Of a stretch of DNA of 64,000 nucleotides, positions 42,482 to 51,976 are shown piece by piece. Within the stretch, counting starts at the first letter, position 1. The number at the start of each line of letters is the position of its first letter. The notes under the pieces were generated by a model. The model did not search any database. It had not been told where the DNA came from and saw only the letters and a program-made list of their open reading frames with translations. A program made the translations under genes and the position numbers. The stretch is taken from contig JACQZN010000049.1 of the NCBI GenBank assembly GCA_016213845.1, positions 15,574 through 79,573 on the forward strand. The letters are read 5' to 3'. Source of the stretch: Candidatus Wallbacteria bacterium (GTDB lineage: Bacteria; Muiribacteriota; UBA6191; JACPRK01).

Positions 42482-43915
42482 TCACGCCGCGGGGGAGACG
42501 CCGTCGGAGGCTTCGACCTGCGGACGGGCCGGCAGCAGCTCCGGCGTCAGGCCGCGCTTGCTGAACGCCATCGAGGCCAGCGTCACGGCGTCGGCCTCGA
42601 GAATGTCGTCGGGGACGCATTGCCCGGTCGTCATGTAGCTGGCGCCCTCGCGGTGCCCCGCGAGCAGGGAGACGACGGAGCCGAAACAGGAGGTTTCGTC
42701 GGTCTTGGTGACCAGCACCTTCTGGAAGCCAAGCTCCTTGAACCCGGCGGTGATTCCCCGCAGGTCGGAGAGCTTCGTCAAGGCGCTGACCAGCAGGTGC
42801 GTCTCGATCGGCATGCCGAACTCGAGGAACTTCTTCAGATCGAGCAGGTCCTCGCGATTGCGGGGGCTGCGGCCCACCGTGTCGATCAGGATGACGTCCT
42901 TGTTGCGGAAGCCGTGGACCAGCTCGATCATCTCCTCGGGCTTGAAGACGACCTTGACCGGGACCTCGACGATCTCGGCGTACTTCTTGAGCTGCTCCGG
43001 AGCCGCGATCCGGTAGGTGTCGATGGTGATGAAGGCGACGTCGAGCCTGTGGTTGAACATCAGGCCGCCGGCAAGCTTGGCCAGGGTCGTGGTCTTGCCG
43101 ACGCCGGTTGGGCCGACCAGGGCGACGAGCTTGCCCTTCTGACCGCCGACGAGCCCGAGTCCACCGGCCACGGAGAGCCGGGAGGCCAGGTACTCGACGG
43201 CGCGCTCGCGGACCCGGGAAGGCTGGCGCAGCTCCCGCTCGGAGAGGGCCTCCACGAGGTACTGGCGCACCTCGCAGATGAGGTCGTCGGCCAGCTCATT
43301 GGCGCGCAGAGTCTGCATCGCCAGCTCGACGTACTGCAGGTCCCGGGCGGGGGCCGGGTCCCGGATGAGGATCATCGGTCCGACCGAGCCGCTGTCCGTG
43401 GCGAGGGCGTCGGAGGGAGAGCCGGAACAATCCGTTCCGGTCGGTCCCTCGGGGCTCGACGAGGGCGGTGCAGAAACCGGTCCGGCGGGCGGTTCCGCCG
43501 GTGACGCCTTGAGCTGACTCAAGACATCCTTCAAGTCTTTCAACTCCGAGAGGACGGAGAGCTGCTGCTTGATCTGGAGGATCTCGTCCTTCATCAGGAC
43601 CAGCTCCTGCGACGGGGGGGGCGGGGCGAGCTGCGCCGGCGGGTCCGACCGCAACTGCGGAGAGGGGGCAATCTCGGCGACGCCGGAGCTGAGCAGCTGC
43701 CGGGCGGCCTCGACGGTCGGATGGGAGCGCGCCTCGCCGCTGGACCGATCGGCGCGCACGCCGACCACCTCGATCCATTCCCGGCGGAAGAAGCCGAAGA
43801 TGCCGCCTCGCTTGTGGGCGGCGGCGTGGACGATCTCGACCTCGGGCCCGAGCTCCTTGCGGAGCTTCTCGTAGGCTTCCTGTCGCGTGGGCGCGGTGAC
43901 TCTCCGGATCAGCAT
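42482..43915 (-). CDS. flhF: SRP-like GTPase FlhF
   Basis: N-terminal EA..K.RKELG.E..I; GPTGVGKTTTLAKLA, DTYRIAAPEQL, DTVGRS, TKTDE, GQ.VPDD. Confidence 0.93.
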   Translation of the reverse strand: MLIRRVTAPTRQEAYEKLRKELGPEVEIVHAAAHKRGGIFGFFRREWIEVVGVRADRSSGEARSHPTVEAARQLLSSGVAEIAPSPQLRSDPPAQLAPPPPSQELVLMKDEILQIKQQLSVLSELKDLKDVLSQLKASPAEPPAGPVSAPPSSSPEGPTGTDCSGSPSDALATDSGSVGPMILIRDPAPARDLQYVELAMQTLRANELADDLICEVRQYLVEALSERELRQPSRVRERAVEYLASRLSVAGGLGLVGGQKGKLVALVGPTGVGKTTTLAKLAGGLMFNHRLDVAFITIDTYRIAAPEQLKKYAEIVEVPVKVVFKPEEMIELVHGFRNKDVILIDTVGRSPRNREDLLDLKKFLEFGMPIETHLLVSALTKLSDLRGITAGFKELGFQKVLVTKTDETSCFGSVVSLLAGHREGASYMTTGQCVPDDILEADAVTLASMAFSKRGLTPELLPARPQVEASDGVSPAA

Positions 43916-43950
43916 GGCGGGTGTTCTCCTGCGAAACTGGCTCGGCGGGT

Positions 43951-44910
43951 TCAGGACCTGCGGAAGAGGCCGGCGAGGCGCTCGAAAAATCCTGGCTGGT
44001 TCGCGGGGGCGGGCGGGGCCGGCGAGTCGAACAGGCCGGCGACTATGTTGGTGATGCAGACCGAAGCGTACGAGTTCGGATAGAGCATCACCACGGGCTT
44101 CTGGCGCCGCACGCTGAGGCTGACGTTCTCGTCCTCGAGGACGAAGCCGGCGTAGTCGACCCTGAGCTGCAGATGCTCGCGCGCCACCTTGCTGAAGCGC
44201 CGCGCAACCAGCAGCCCCTCCTCGGGGTCCTTGACCTTGTTGACGACGATCGACGTCCTCGGCACGCTCGACCCCTCCATCGCCAGCGTCTTGAGGACGC
44301 CATAGGCGTCGGCCATCGCGGTCGGCTCGGGGGTGGTGACGAGCAGGACTTCGTCGGCCGCGCGCACGAAGGAGAGGACGTTGCGGGAGAGCCCCGCCCC
44401 GGTGTCGATGAGCAGCACGTCGGAGTAGGACTCCAGGCGTCGCAGGTTTTGCAGCAGCTCGCCCATCGCCCGGTCGTCGAGGTCGGCCAGCTCGGCCATA
44501 CCGCTGCCTCCGGCGATGAACTTCACGCCCGGAGGTCCGCTCACCAGGATTCCCGGCAAGTCGCGCTTGCCCTTGAGGACGTGGTACAGCGTGTACTGGG
44601 GACGCACACCGAAGAGCACGTCCAGGTTGGCCATGCCGAGGTCGGCGTCGAAAGCCAGAACGGACTTGCCAAGCCGCGTCATCGCGACGGCCAGGTTTGC
44701 GACCATGCTGCTCTTGCCGACGCCGCCCTTGCCGCTCGTCACGGTGATGACGCGGGCGCGCTTTGCCTGGACAGGCTCGACCGCCTGTGGCGCTGGCGGG
44801 GCAGGCCGCACCGAGGGCAGGGCGCGGAGCCCAGGAGCGGGATCGCGCCGACGGGGCGCCATCATCGCGTGCGAGCTGGCCTGGGTTCGGCTGGGCTGGG
44901 TCATGGTCAT
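43951..44910 (-). CDS. flhG: MinD-like ATPase FlhG/FleN (paralog without DQAxxLR)
   Basis: [38 protein letters not shown]-terminal amphipathic GFFERLAGLF. Confidence 0.9.
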   Translation of the reverse strand: MTMTQPSRTQASSHAMMAPRRRDPAPGLRALPSVRPAPPAPQAVEPVQAKRARVITVTSGKGGVGKSSMVANLAVAMTRLGKSVLAFDADLGMANLDVLFGVRPQYTLYHVLKGKRDLPGILVSGPPGVKFIAGGSGMAELADLDDRAMGELLQNLRRLESYSDVLLIDTGAGLSRNVLSFVRAADEVLLVTTPEPTAMADAYGVLKTLAMEGSSVPRTSIVVNKVKDPEEGLLVARRFSKVAREHLQLRVDYAGFVLEDENVSLSVRRQKPVVMLYPNSYASVCITNIVAGLFDSPAPPAPANQPGFFERLAGLFRRS

Positions 44911-45054
44911 CGTTGTCCGTCCCTTGCTGGGCGGGTCACGGGTGCCCGTGGAGTGTTCGTGTCGGAATTGGTTCCGTCCGGGGGTGGGATTCCAGGTAGG
45001 CCGAGGGAGGCGACTGCCGGGGCTGCGAGCCGCGTGAGCTGCGCTGGTGGGGGG

Positions 45055-50648: not shown

Positions 50649-50953
50649 GCGGCTTCCTCCCCGTCCACGCTACGCAGGAGGCGGCCGGTCGAGGCCTCGC
50701 GGCCGAGTTTTTCGATGAGCTCAGCGCGGCCGTTGCCGACGCTGAGCAAGAGCTCGCGACCATCGATTTCCACGGTGACCAGGCGAACACCCTGCCCCAG
50801 CACGAGGCTGCCGGTGACCTTCATACGAGCGCCCCGAGCGGCGGCTCCTCCGCGCGTCCGCAGATATAGACCAACGACCGGCACGGCCACGACGACGGCC
50901 GCGAGCGCAATCAGCGATCGCCACATGGGTAGGACCTCCGCCTCTGTCAGCAC
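50645..50953 (-). CDS. fliO: FliO/FliZ
   Basis: Single TM, then MKV..SL.LG....L..VEI.GRELLL.V; ATGA overlap with fliP. Confidence 0.8.
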   Translation of the reverse strand: MLTEAEVLPMWRSLIALAAVVVAVPVVGLYLRTRGGAAARGARMKVTGSLVLGQGVRLVTVEIDGRELLLSVGNGRAELIEKLGREASTGRLLRSVDGEEAA

Positions 50954-50977
50954 GGTGCACTCCGTCCGCCAGGCGAC

Positions 50978-51976
50978 TCAGGCCCGGACCGCGGGCCGAC
51001 CCCTCGACCCGCTCGTTTCAGGCGTCAAAGGATTCAACCACTCCGCCGGGCTGGCGACCTCCACCAGCCTCAAGGCCAGGTAACCGTCCTCGACGACCAC
51101 CTCGCCCCGGGCCATCTCGCGCCCCAGCGCCGAGAGCGTGGCCAGCTCACCGGCCAGCCTGTCGAGCCGGATGACCTGACCGGCCCTGAGCGCGGCCAGC
51201 TCCACGAGCGGAAGGACGCTCCCGCCAATCTCCGCAGCCAGCCGGACAGAAGTGTCTTCGACTTCTTCCACCTGCTCGAGCGCATCGAGAGCAGCCGGCT
51301 CGGCCACAATCGGTTGCGGAGCTGCCACCTGGGCGGCGACCGCCGCCTGCGGTCTCACCAGCGCCGCCAGATCGCGCACCAGCGACGCCTCGCCGTAGAG
51401 CCGCAGGCGTGCCGGCCCTCCCGCACGCCTCTCCAGGTCGAAGTCGAGCGCGACCATCCCCCTATCGCCCTGGGCTGCGACCGGCCAGCATCCCGATCCG
51501 ACGCTCCACGGAGCCATTTCCACGGCGACGTTCTTCTGGAGCTCCACTCGAAAGGCGACCTCGATGTCGCGCGCAACCGAATCCATCAGCACGGCGATGG
51601 TCTCCTCGGAGCGAACCGGCCGCGTGGTGGCCACGAGCGCCAGCGCGGCCCGGGCGCGGAACTGCCCCGTCAGCTCCAGGACGACCGCCCACACACCGCT
51701 CTCCGCACAGCACTGGCGCGCAACCGACGGCGCCACCAGACCAAGCTCCGGAGGCAGCGGCTCGGCCACCCCGCCGACCGCGGCGCTCACCCGTGCAGCG
51801 GCGGCACCGAAAATCCTGTGCGCCGCCCGCGAGGCGTCGGAGAAGTCGGCCGGCGCGAACAGGGCCTGGGACACGAGAGCGATACCGTCTCCATCCTCCG
51901 ATAGCCCTCTCAGCTCCGAGTCGGAAAGGAAAGCCCTGCTCACGGTCACCTCGCTACTCAATCGGCCCTGGGACAC
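50978..51976 (-). CDS. FliY/FliN-like C-ring protein: degenerate CheC-like N-domain plus SpoA domain
   Basis: C-terminal V.L.AEIG......EL..L..GQVIRLDRLAGE....ARGEVVV SpoA motif. Confidence 0.8.
   Translation of the reverse strand: MSQGRLSSEVTVSRAFLSDSELRGLSEDGDGIALVSQALFAPADFSDASRAAHRIFGAAAARVSAAVGGVAEPLPPELGLVAPSVARQCCAESGVWAVVLELTGQFRARAALALVATTRPVRSEETIAVLMDSVARDIEVAFRVELQKNVAVEMAPWSVGSGCWPVAAQGDRGMVALDFDLERRAGGPARLRLYGEASLVRDLAALVRPQAAVAAQVAAPQPIVAEPAALDALEQVEEVEDTSVRLAAEIGGSVLPLVELAALRAGQVIRLDRLAGELATLSALGREMARGEVVVEDGYLALRLVEVASPAEWLNPLTPETSGSRGRPAVRA

Follow-up and report, generated by a model that had tools for sequence, protein, structure and literature searches.

A flagellum-derived type III export apparatus without detected rod or motor genes, probably kept for a non-motility role in a groundwater bacterium

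We consider it fairly probable that an operon of a groundwater bacterium (genome G000, a 6.2 Mb MAG, 83.9 % complete) encodes one half of a type III export apparatus of flagellar origin, rod-less and motor-less, which has been kept for a non-motility role. The operon occupies positions 42482-51976 of the window, by which we mean the whole 64,000-nucleotide stretch of DNA analysed. Since the export core and the placement proteins are kept under selection, whereas the rod, hook, filament and motor (MotB stator) genes of the flagellum were not found in G000, the machine probably serves a purpose different from swimming. The preliminary description had proposed that the gate is streamlined and has been retained for a different purpose, and the checks for decay and for motile relatives carrying the same changes both came out in favour of this proposal.

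Layout of the operon

The Pfam search recovered the operon intact and bore out the gene content and canonical order first described, with all genes on the minus strand: FliM/N-like protein, FliO, FliP, FliQ, FliR, FlhB, FlhA, two FlhG-like ATPases and FlhF (Table 1). None of the 10 frames contains an internal stop and both ATGA overlaps, at fliO/fliP and at fliR/flhB, were found, in agreement with the intact frames and translational coupling claimed earlier. The same holds for the claimed lack of other flagellar genes in the 64 kb, as a scan of the 20 other window ORFs matched no further flagellar family. The majority of the system's proteins score below the NCBIfam equivalog cut-offs.

Table 1 Features of the export operon and its upstream region, in window positions.
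Feature	Position	Strand	Length (aa)	Evidence
FlhF SRP-type GTPase	42482..43915	-	477	TIGR03499; SRP54 domain 114.7 bits
FlhG-like MinD/ParA ATPase 2	43951..44910	-	319	Pfam, NCBIfam
FlhG-like MinD/ParA ATPase 1	45055..45999	-	314	Pfam, NCBIfam
FlhA	46024..47979	-	651	FHIPEP 525 bits
FlhB, membrane domain and linker only	47996..48808	-	270	Bac_export_2
FliR, very divergent	48805..49593	-	262	Bac_export_1 61.3 bits
FliQ	49618..49887	-	89	Bac_export_3 59.9 bits; GTG start after GGAGG site
FliP	49956..50648	-	230	Pfam 223 bits
FliO	50645..50953	-	102	Pfam FliO 34.2 bits; stop overlaps fliP start (ATGA)
FliM/SctQ-like cytoplasmic-ring protein	50978..51976	-	332	FliMN_C 55 bits (Pfam)
Intergenic leader, possible promoter	51977..52367	-		AT-rich island and TTGACA
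TPR-repeat protein, candidate accessory/scaffold	52368..55088	-		Weak Pfam TPR matches

The AT-rich sigma70-like promoter that had been assigned to the operon was not recovered. A sigma-70 promoter scan of positions 40500-52500 gave no promoter-like site, and the leader's AT-rich island holds a perfect minus-strand TTGACA (52107-52102) that is not accompanied by a matching -10 hexamer. A sigma-54 consensus is also absent from the leader. The longest frame of the TPR protein measures 906 aa, with every TPR match within residues 470-738; its start is uncertain, and a frame at 53927-55501 overlaps its 5' part. In G009, a genome of a different family, the C-terminal half of this protein likewise adjoins the FliM/N-like gene upstream (tblastn, 35 % identity over 289 aa).

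Ring and gate proteins

The FliM/N-like protein carries a FliN/SpoA-type domain at residues 237-308, and its N-terminal 235 residues match no family. One FliMN_C gene each was found in G000, G005, G007 and G009, and two in the flagellated G006. Among 5.8 billion proteins, four matches at E ≤ 0.001 lay beyond the query's own cluster, two of which showed 43-47 % identity covering 92 % of the query. The AF2 model was unusable (pLDDT 37.8). As a lead only, the 332-aa ring protein may be a very divergent FliM, given that language-model features group it with FliM clusters at 0.87.

The gate proteins had been called divergent and Ala-rich, and they are: alanine makes up 27.9 % of FliR, 23.0 % of FlhB and 18.4 % of the FliM/N-like protein, and FliR found no match among solved structures at E ≤ 0.001. 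In FliR, identity to the same-genus MAG G002 is 59 %, with a dN/dS of 0.34. The proposed concentration of losses in gating and sorting parts was confirmed in three proteins, namely FlhB, FliP and FlhA. FlhB covers only positions 2-234 of 335 of Bac_export_2 and ends before the autocleaving NPTH domain, at a point where the aligned G021 protein runs on with NPTQ and ~90 residues. No separate FlhB C-domain was detected in G000 at E ≤ 0.01, and the four closest representatives among 1.84 billion proteins measure 250-274 aa.

FliP is well conserved (83 % identity to G002, dN/dS 0.17) except for its methionine 'gasket' loop, in which the three gasket methionines are gone: G000 reads GLAAV against GMMML in solved FliPs, that is, LAAV for MMML. 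The loop reads GLAGV, GLAGL or GISGV in relatives of family f1, GLA-L in f4, GLTML in f5 and GMIML in G021. In FlhA the membrane domain is conserved and the cytoplasmic domain is ~43 residues short; the FHIPEP match falls into two stretches, 1-402 and 457-656, with Pfam positions 403-456 missing, a gap shared in the alignment by G000, G002 and G004 only. No sequence beyond its own small clade exceeds 38 % identity to this FlhA, which fits the flagellar model (471 bits) better than the SctV model (379 bits). A second fliP or flhA set was sought in G000, and FliP and FHIPEP genes each proved to be single copy.

Placement proteins

Both FlhF and FlhG had been described as near-canonical, which is true of FlhF: its TIGR03499 score of 187.6 bits exceeds the equivalog cut-off of 174.15, and the G1, G3 and G4 motifs can be read in its sequence. 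The description does not extend to the FlhG-like pair, whose NCBIfam MinD matches (142 and 141 bits) stay below the cut-off of 201.75. In ATPase 1 a DQAxxLR-type motif lies N-terminally, the P-loop reads KGGVGK and the C-terminal tail is amphipathic. Against G002 this ATPase is 82 % identical with a dN/dS of 0.13, and ATPase 2 is about 82-85 % identical with a dN/dS of 0.17. The paralogue pair also occurs in G007 and G006. Since flagellated G006 shows the same arrangement, a pair of FlhG genes with FlhF behind them, this order is, by comparative synteny, ancestral to the class.

Partner genes and missing genes

On another contig of G000 we found fliF-fliH-fliI and a FliJ-like gene. FliF scores 116 bits with the flagellar model against 61 bits with the injectisome model, and its C-terminus carries a fused FliG C-domain remnant of roughly 90 residues. 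FliI, 85 % identical to its G002 counterpart, has an intact P-loop (SGSGVGKS) and Walker B motif (VLLMMDS). The only role known for the FliH-FliI ATPase complex is loading and energising type III export (PMC7911332). The earlier picture of a minimal CORE thus stands for the six CORE families but not for the system as a whole, which also has FliF with its FliG remnant, FliH, FliI and the FliJ-like protein elsewhere in the genome.

Searches of G000 returned no match at E ≤ 0.1 for the Flagellin_N, Flg_bb_rod, Flg_bbr_C and FliM domains and none for MotB_plug, and BLASTP with FlgB, FlgC and FliE from G006, a flagellated member of the class, gave no match at E ≤ 1e-3; for FliE, the search consisted of BLAST with the G006 gene only. 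Flagellin and rod matches are both missing in 9 of 41 relatives, G000 counted, including G007 (100 % complete) and G021 (97 % complete). The class sample comprised 18 genomes, and the split within it was clear-cut: flagellin, rod and above-cut-off MotB_plug matches are absent from all eight genomes of families f1, f2, f4 and f5 and present in all ten of f3. Because the absence of axial and motor genes recurs across relatives including the 100 %-complete G007, and because synteny agrees, we infer that it does not stem from the assembly. Axial or needle-like proteins, if short and fast-evolving, could evade Pfam and BLAST.

Selection on the export genes

G002 carries the orthologous operon in intact form, and NG86 dN/dS values against this genome range from 0.13 to 0.48 across all 10 operon genes, with FlhB highest at 0.48. 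Against the 97 %-identical strain G001, a comparison that is unsaturated (dS 0.05-0.2), dN/dS is 0.05 for FliI, 0.09 for FliH and 0.12 for FliF, and 0.21 and 0.19 for the neighbouring xerC and dehydrogenase genes. All frames examined in the relatives are open, with no stop inside a match. The decay check on the earlier proposal therefore came out negative for decay, and on these substitution ratios selection on the export genes is purifying. In the FlhA tree, branches of 1.35-3.0 compare with a median of 0.23. The fast evolution of FlhA, FlhB and FliR also fits relaxed constraint.

Distribution and graded losses among relatives

All four non-flagellated families of the class repeat this export-gene subset, the 100 %-complete G007 among their genomes, and full flagellar sets are present in the fifth. 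Among the eight genomes of the reduced families, all of them MAGs, FliF was found in seven, FliP in seven (G000, G002, G003, G004, G005, G007 and G009, not in G001) and FlhA in five, its match missing in G001, G003 and G005. Gene order is xerC-hslV-hslU-fliF in G003, G004, G005 and G007, with hslV and hslU identified by size and position only, and xerC-fliF in G000, G001 and G002. As fliF directly follows hslU or xerC in these genomes, whereas flgB-flgC-fliE stand directly before fliF in G006, gene order shows what we read as a deletion of flgB-flgC-fliE in the reduced genomes.

The families f5, f4 and f1 form a graded series of derived states. In f5 the FlhB C-domain is present but degenerate, with DGSG for NPTH; f4 combines a truncated FlhB with a separate FliG-like gene of 319 aa; in f1 FlhB is truncated, the FlhA segment is deleted and the FliG remnant is fused to FliF. 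In all three, the D of the conserved FlhA GD has become E, and the DxD of 'MAIDADL' is lost as well. FlhB C-domain loss, FlhA deletion and FliP methionine loss occur only in genomes without flagellin or rod matches. Motile relatives with the same changes were sought and none was found, as flagellin and rod matches are present throughout f3 and FlhA is canonical in those f3 genomes that were aligned.

Proposed mechanism and alternative explanations

By sequence, the machine consists of an inner-membrane gate (FliPQR with FliO assistance, the FlhB membrane domain and FlhA), an MS-ring of FliF with its FliG remnant, a cytoplasmic ring of one FliM/SctQ-like protein, a FliH-FliI ATPase complex with a FliJ-like stalk, and a placement and number module of FlhF and two FlhG-like ATPases. 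A few MS-ring/gate assemblies would be positioned by FlhF/FlhG, probably at a pole, and FliH-FliI-FliJ with the proton-motive force would push unfolded protein substrates through FliPQR to the periplasm or, alternatively, hand them to a candidate partner structure. The early-to-late switch would be absent since the FlhB C-domain, reported to dock early subunits (PMC8983047), is gone, and chaperone docking of filament-type cargo would be absent since FlhA has lost part of its cytoplasmic domain. The cell has BamA and is hence diderm; no outer-membrane component or substrate was identified, and no RNA run was found to contain the locus.

The same reduced complex could have been kept for something other than protein secretion, which we regard as rather unlikely: a polar landmark or scaffold organised by FlhF/FlhG, a membrane-remodelling platform (nanotube CORE, hat-shaped structure), or an ion-conducting or regulatory module. 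The parts lost or degraded are those of substrate recognition and gating, and since the FlhB C-domain and the FliP methionine loop are important in model systems, the gate may fail to translocate any protein. The placement proteins are moreover among the best conserved, B. subtilis nanotubes reportedly need FliOPQR-FlhBA without FliF, FliI, rod or flagellin (PMC6456723), and a hat-shaped structure of the inner membrane has been reported to be related to fT3SS proteins (PMC9380563). An export ATPase would however be superfluous for a passive scaffold, and the reported CORE function is independent of FliI, yet FliH, FliI and the FliJ-like protein are co-retained, FliI being the most constrained gene measured with its motifs intact, and the channel-forming FliP remains highly similar to that of G002.

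That the organism is flagellated, its missing genes being unassembled in the MAGs or too divergent to detect, is very unlikely. The limited completeness of the MAGs (83.9 % for G000, 72-84 % for other family members) leaves some room for it, as does the strong divergence of the parts detected, FlhA above all, but the axial genes are missing throughout the four families, and hslU and an unrelated dehydrogenase occupy the positions expected for flgB-flgC-fliE and fliK-flgE. A truncated FlhB and a shortened FlhA would also fit poorly with ordered rod-hook-filament export, judging from model systems. Simple decay, with flagellar genes being lost and the survivors not yet mutated, seems to us highly improbable. 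The fast-evolving, alanine-rich FliR, FlhB and FliM/N-like proteins, the long FlhA branches and the stepwise domain losses speak for it; against it, a ~15-gene subset is intact between f1 and f4/f5 at an FlhA identity of only 35-36 %, no match contains a stop, translational coupling is retained, and dN/dS is far below 1 and, in the unsaturated comparison, under that of neighbouring housekeeping genes.

Comparison with known systems

The nearest analogues of the present system are the needleless Myxococcus T3SS* and the Lysobacter FT3SS. With the canonical flagellar export apparatus of Salmonella and Bacillus it shares all core families plus FliO, FlhF and FlhG; flagellar models outscore injectisome ones for both FlhA and FliF, and synteny is fla/che-like, with an order xerC-hslVU-fliF-fliH-fliI that we take to resemble the Bacillus operon. 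It differs in having no FliE, rod, hook, cap, flagellin, MotB or FliM-domain match, and in its FlhB without C-domain, shortened FlhA, replaced FliP loop and FliG reduced to a remnant on FliF.

The Myxococcus xanthus T3SS* is described as a type III sorting platform with its gate that lacks needle, secretin and translocon and yet works in prey lysis together with a Tad pilus (PMC12075869), and Abby & Rocha (2012) proposed that the Myxococcales systems descend from an intermediate after flagellum-specific gene loss (PMC3459982). The Myxococcus system is a member of the non-flagellar (Sct) lineage, whereas family scores, FlhF/FlhG and synteny mark the present system as flagellar, and it sits beside flagellated members of its own class. 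Should the present system be one for secretion, it would represent a separate reduction. Lysobacter enzymogenes OH11, which has no flagella and no fliC, is reported to keep, express and use flagellar T3SS genes (PMC7688988), its FT3SS serving toxic protein secretion and twitching (PMC7688988; PMC7277350). According to the same account OH11 retains hook, rod, L- and P-ring and hook-cap genes, none of which was found in the present genome, and FlhB/FlhA domain losses, both present here, are not among the features it reports (PMC7688988).

The six families of the B. subtilis CORE (FliOPQR-FlhBA) are all found here, contiguously. The nanotube phenomenon itself is disputed. As reported, the CORE is independent of FliF/FliI (PMC6456723). 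In the present system, by contrast, FliF, FliH and FliI are kept and strongly constrained.

Endosymbionts and Chlamydiae likewise retain partial flagellar sets without a filament. Buchnera has basal bodies and still carries rod and hook genes; in Chlamydiae only a few orphans (FliF, FliI and FlhA) stand beside a full injectisome. Flagellar homologues are described more generally from bacteria without functional flagella (PMC7688988). Unlike Buchnera and Chlamydiae, the present genome keeps the whole gate, ring, ATPase and placement set.

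Gate and placement genes in the window

Ten contiguous open frames occupy 42482-51976 on the minus strand, and all ten received Pfam assignments. The gate set, consisting of FliP, FliQ, FliR, FlhA and the membrane domain of FlhB, scored above the Pfam cut-offs throughout. The preliminary description had proposed that the operon is free of frameshifts and internal stops, and we found no internal stop in 10/10 frames; the ATGA overlaps at the fliO/fliP and fliR/flhB junctions, taken as translational coupling, and the alanine-rich character of the gate proteins (28% alanine in FliR, 23% in FlhB) were likewise recovered. 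Its statement that the 64 kb hold no fliF/G/H/I/M, rod, hook, flagellin, mot or fliA gene agrees with our scan of the 20 other ORFs, none of which was flagellar; they encode sensor kinases, sigma-54 activators, glycosyltransferases, HEAT, CARDB and TPR proteins, and unknowns. The AT-rich sigma70-like promoter that it had placed before the operon stood only in part: within the leader (51977-52367) a perfect TTGACA sits in an AT-rich island, but a consensus scan of 40500-52500 returned no sigma-70-like site. A sigma-54 pattern scan gave 53 matches against 57 expected, none within the operon leader. FliR had no match among solved structures. The two family-less genes beyond flhF were not found beside flhF in G007, a relative from the reduced family f4.

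Table. Features of the operon and its surroundings in the Candidatus Wallbacteria MAG (G000), with dN/dS against G002 of the same genus; dS in this comparison is 0.6-1.1, near saturation, so the ratios are biased upwards
Feature	Position	Strand	Length (aa)	Matches and remarks	dN/dS vs G002
FliM/N-like	within 42482-51976	-	332	FliMN_C, C-terminal domain, 55 bits	0.45
FliO	within 42482-51976	-	102	FliO, 34 bits	0.39
FliP	within 42482-51976	-	230	FliP, 223 bits	0.17
FliQ	within 42482-51976	-	89	Bac_export_3, 60 bits	0.28
FliR	within 42482-51976	-	262	Bac_export_1, 61 bits	0.34
FlhB	within 42482-51976	-	270	Bac_export_2, 92 bits, profile positions 2-234 of 335 only	0.48
FlhA	within 42482-51976	-	651	FHIPEP, 525 bits, two stretches	0.21
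MinD/ParA-type ATPase 1 (FlhG1)	within 42482-51976	-	314	several ParA/MinD families (Pfam)	0.13
MinD/ParA-type ATPase 2 (FlhG2)	within 42482-51976	-	319	several ParA/MinD families (Pfam)	0.17
SRP-type GTPase (FlhF)	within 42482-51976	-	477	SRP54, 114.7 bits	0.28 (85 aa only)
TPR region	52368-55501	-	906 and 524	two long overlapping frames, the second in another frame; boundaries ambiguous	
Two family-less genes	40803-42207	-	248 and 195	beyond flhF after a 274-nt gap; the 248-aa protein has a weak ZapG-like match	
Regulatory genes	36602-40730	+		sensor kinase, NtrC-type sigma-54 activator, hybrid kinase; downstream of the flhF end, about 1.75 kb from flhF	
Regulatory genes	61095-64000	+		response regulator, second PAS-GAF sigma-54 activator; about 9 kb past the other end	
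Giant surface-type protein	12547-20946	+	2799	CARDB, NHL, Ig-like, A2M	
Giant surface-type protein, partial	1-3569	-	>1189	CARDB/DUF11	
Large HEAT-repeat protein	4351-6333	-			
Large HEAT-repeat protein	C78:22657-25005			beside dprA, upstream of the fliF locus	

FlhF passed the TIGR03499 equivalog cut-off (187.6 vs 174.15 bits), with its G motifs visible in the translation, and the two FlhG-like ATPases gave only sub-cut-off MinD matches. FlhG is a MinD-type ATPase that carries a motif for FlhF activation at its N-terminus and a helix for membrane targeting at its C-terminus. Read from the translation, paralogue 1 carries a DQAVKLR motif and both paralogues have amphipathic tails. In G006, a flagellated relative of family f3, flhA is also followed by two MinD-like genes and then flhF, the same position beside flhA and flhF as in G000. 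The pair is thus ancestral and lies outside the remodelling, and paired FlhG was rejected as a novelty of the reduced system.

A second locus with MS ring and export ATPase genes

G000 is a 6.23-Mb MAG of 135 contigs, 83.9% complete, with the window on contig C80. A genome-wide profile search found FHIPEP and FliP nowhere else in it, and its single YscJ_FliF match (103 bits) lies on contig C78. Genes on this contig run in the order HEAT protein, dprA, smg, topA, xerC-like integrase, FliF (530 aa), FliH (46 bits), FliI (FliI/YscN subfamily, 546 bits, cut-off 379.5), a 134-aa gene and an unrelated 2-hydroxyacid dehydrogenase. The P-loop and Walker B of FliI are intact. The 134-aa gene occupies the fliJ position, its counterpart in G005 (family f2) has a sub-cut-off Pfam FliJ match, and, as a lead only, its language-model features resemble those of FliJ clusters. 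The MS ring and the ATPase complex (FliF, FliH, FliI and a FliJ-like protein) are therefore represented in G000. The C78 HEAT protein is also kept beside dprA in G007 (45% identity).

Searches of G000 with Flagellin_N, Flg_bb_rod and Flg_bbr_C (E<=0.1 or 0.001) gave no match, and neither did those with the FliM domain and MotB_plug. A motility flagellum requires rod, hook and flagellin, and torque requires a MotB stator, sought here as MotB_plug, together with a full FliG/FliM/FliN switch; neither set was found in G000. Two BLAST matches between the flagellar neighbourhood of G006 and contig C6 of G000 were traced to type I restriction-modification genes. The presence of BamA marks the cell as diderm.

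Selection and evolutionary rate

G001, which belongs to the same genus, is 97% identical to G000 with unsaturated dS (0.05-0.2). By the NG86 method, dN/dS in this pair was 0.12 for FliF, 0.09 for FliH and 0.05 for FliI, and 0.36 for the FliJ-like gene, the last from only 10 differences; the neighbours xerC and the dehydrogenase gave 0.21 and 0.19. The preliminary description had named dN/dS near 1 or frameshifts in close relatives as the marks of simple decay. Across both loci the ratios run from 0.05 to 0.48, and no stops were seen within the matches in relatives. These results argue against simple decay, although constraint may have been relaxed in FlhB, FliR and the ring protein.

In a quick FlhA tree, the reduced-lineage branches measured 1.35-3.0 substitutions per site vs a median of 0.23; the search was run without an Sct outgroup, and the long branches of the reduced lineages may attract one another. 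G+C content is split within the class, at about 45% in f3 and 64-72% in the reduced families (G006 loci L045 and L047 vs the window), which is a possible source of bias in this tree.

Distribution and synteny among relatives

The nearest FlhA, at 72% identity, lies on contig C42 of G002. Only three proteins among 5.8 billion reach at least 50% identity, and all others stand at 38% or below. A locus search with FlhA across genome contigs returned nine loci at 32-34% identity in Syntrophia and Desulfobacterota MAGs.

Within the class, MotB_plug exceeded its cut-off in 10/18 genomes, all of them f3, whose FlhA is canonical (about 880 bits). In a wider sample, flagellin and rod matches occurred in 32/41 genomes; the nine without them are the eight genomes of f1, f2, f4 and f5, and G021 of family f9, elsewhere in the phylum. 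G021 (L029; 97% complete) keeps a full-length canonical FlhB (378 bits, NPTQ for NPTH), an FlhA of 818 bits, fliP, fliQ, one flhG and flhF, and may represent a separate, more recent loss.

Table. Axial and stator matches in the 18 class genomes and G021, with the FliP loop sequence
Group	Genomes	Flagellin_N + Flg_bb_rod	MotB_plug over cut-off	FliP loop
f1	G000-G004	0	0	GLAAV, GLAGV, GLAGL, GISGV
f2	G005	0	0	
f4	G007 (100% complete)	0	0	GLA-L
f5	G009	0	0	GLTML
f3	ten genomes	10/10	10/10	
f9	G021	0		GMIML
Solved FliPs				GMMML

FliF was found in seven and FlhA in five of the eight reduced-family genomes. FliP is present in G000, G002, G009 and 4/5 further genomes searched (G003, G004, G005 and G007), and was not found in G001. 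The entire operon recurs in identical order in G002; G007 has flhB-flhA-flhG-flhG-flhF, and G009 has TPR, FliM/N-like, fliP, fliQ and, further on, flhA. A single FliMN_C gene adjoins fliP in G000, G005, G007 and G009, vs two in flagellated G006. At the second locus, xerC is followed in G003, G004, G005 and G007 by two genes of the size of hslV and hslU and then directly by fliF, and in the genus of G000, G001 and G002 fliF comes directly after xerC, with the presumed hslV-hslU missing from that interval. In G006, three small genes precede fliF and, given the Flg_bb_rod matches there, are taken as flgB, flgC and fliE; they had no BLASTP match in G000. By this synteny, the axial genes were deleted, and their absence is not a matter of missing data.

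Remodelling of FlhB, FlhA and FliP

FlhB of G000, G002 and G004 stops just short of the site at which the full-length FlhB of G021 has NPTQ and about 90 further residues, and the autocleaving (NPTH) switch domain required of FlhB is thus missing in G000. The FlhB frame of G007 ends about 30 residues past profile position 238, and that of G009 (347 aa) keeps a C-terminal stretch that has no profile match and carries DGSG at the NPTH site. No separate gene for the FlhB C-domain was found in G000, G002, G007 or G009 (E<=0.01). The four FlhB proteins closest to it among 1.84 billion representatives measure 250-274 aa and most others listed about 350-370 aa; 19 of the other 146 listed are <290 aa and may be fragments.

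The membrane domain of FlhA aligned well to solved FlhA. On the solved-chain alignment (own count), R147, R154 and D158 are kept, K203 is changed to R and D208 to E. A GD-to-E change and the loss of both aspartates of 'MAIDADL' are common to f1, f4 and f5 and absent in f3 and the relatives G020 and G021. In f1 alone, about 43 cytoplasmic-domain residues are missing (~435-493 of the solved chain), a segment corresponding to subdomain D2, which adjoins the site of chaperone docking. In FliP, the reduced lineages have lost the methionines of the 'M-gasket' loop.

Candidate FliG remnant, FliF and the ring protein

The sole FliG_C signal in G000 (19.5 bits) falls within the last 90 residues of FliF, and matches in this place occur in four f1 genomes in all (26.5, 25.6, 22.7 and 19.5 bits). 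G005 has a FliG_C match between fliF and fliH (24.5-28.7 bits), and in G007 fliF is followed by a FliG-like gene of its own (319 aa; FliG_C, 69.5 bits). Aligning the FliF alignment with the G007 protein in hhalign gave a weak result (E 0.023, probability 2%), so the candidate FliG remnant in FliF rests on the f1 Pfam matches, the G005 match and the position of the G007 gene. An AF2 model of FliF (pLDDT 63) contains a second membrane helix as well as the ring-building domains, and residues 437-529 form a helical tail predicted with confidence. Its top Foldseek matches were FliF rings, and FliF and SctJ rings filled the list, with no FliG chain for the C-terminal helices. Four flagellated f3 genomes (G006:C54, G016:C33, G010:C144 and G012:C9) encode, alongside the canonical FliG of 342 aa, a second and shorter frame with FliG_C (about 176-283 aa).

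The N-terminal domain of the 332-aa ring protein belongs to no family. By language model the protein lies closest to FliM clusters (0.87, short of the tool's mark of 0.9), and its length and layout would fit FliM or SctQ. Its AF2 model, built from a 3-row alignment, reached a pLDDT of 37.8.

Possible function and alternative explanations

In lineages that yielded no axial or stator gene, the gate, the MS ring and the ring protein, the ATPase complex and the placement module are all kept intact and constrained. The flagellated sister family holds the canonical set, and a graded series of losses hits the switch and docking parts. Constraint is strongest on the export ATPase complex and on FliP, the channel subunit; as read from MAG genomics, the complex would therefore most likely still transport protein through the inner membrane. 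Since the cell is bounded by an outer membrane and the loci encode neither rod, ring nor secretin, cargo would end up in the periplasm or be passed on to a different structure. The retention of FlhF and FlhG makes it probable that the assemblies are few and polar.

The main rival is a non-secretory role as a landmark or membrane platform; the parts lost are those for recognition and gating, which favours it, and the constraint on the ATPase complex and FliP points to protein movement. Simple decay is unlikely in view of the low dN/dS and the uninterrupted matches in relatives. A hidden flagellum, with its axial genes in the uncovered part of the MAG, is also unlikely; the complete G007 gave the same negative searches. 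Injectisome (Sct) membership, judged on the core proteins, was rejected on flagellar scores and synteny: flagellar models outscored Sct models for FlhA and FliF, FliI was near equal (565 vs 552 bits), and the presence of FliO, FlhF and FlhG was counted against it. The genes of the CORE nanotube platform, FliOPQR-FlhBA, are all present in G000, and a CORE-only platform was rejected since the ATPase complex is retained.

A further reading is possible, if on the doubtful side: in these groundwater bacteria a flagellum would have been turned, independently and for a second time, into a type III secretion machine that has no needle, with cargo selected without the FlhB C-domain or the FlhA chaperone-docking subdomain, positioned by FlhF/FlhG, and a living analogue of the proposed 'first step' intermediate of injectisome origin.

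Relation to known systems

Several related cases have been described. A reduced and re-used flagellar T3SS is in print for Lysobacter enzymogenes OH11, which retains rod, hook and ring genes, whereas none were found in G000 (PMC7688988). A needle-less Sct-type system functions in Myxococcus predation (PMC12075869), an fT3SS-related hat-shaped structure is known (PMC9380563), FliO homologues are reported in non-flagellar contexts (PMC12248157), and the CORE nanotube claim holds that FliF and FliI are not needed (PMC6456723). Abby and Rocha found NF-T3SSs monophyletic and proposed a motility-less intermediate for injectisome origins, in which flagellum-specific genes were lost and secretins then recruited; the motility-less set of the G000 type is exactly the kind of intermediate that they proposed (PMC3459982). 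Our literature search found no description of a flagellar-lineage system without all axial genes and the FlhB C-domain, nor did it turn up any report on flagellar genes of this candidate group.

If true, a lineage that took the same first step independently would make the injectisome-origin model testable on living material, with intermediate states preserved in neighbouring families. The losses offer natural experiments on the need for the FlhB C-domain, the deleted FlhA cytoplasmic subdomain and the FliP methionine loop, and they raise the question of what FlhF and FlhG position without a flagellum. Even if the complex is inactive, the long-term retention of a machine fragment is clear and needs explanation. 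The flagellated sister family is still at hand for comparison. Flagellated relatives (G006-G040) carry up to 15-16 flagellin matches per genome, in open frames of about 530-950 aa, which are unusually large for flagellins.
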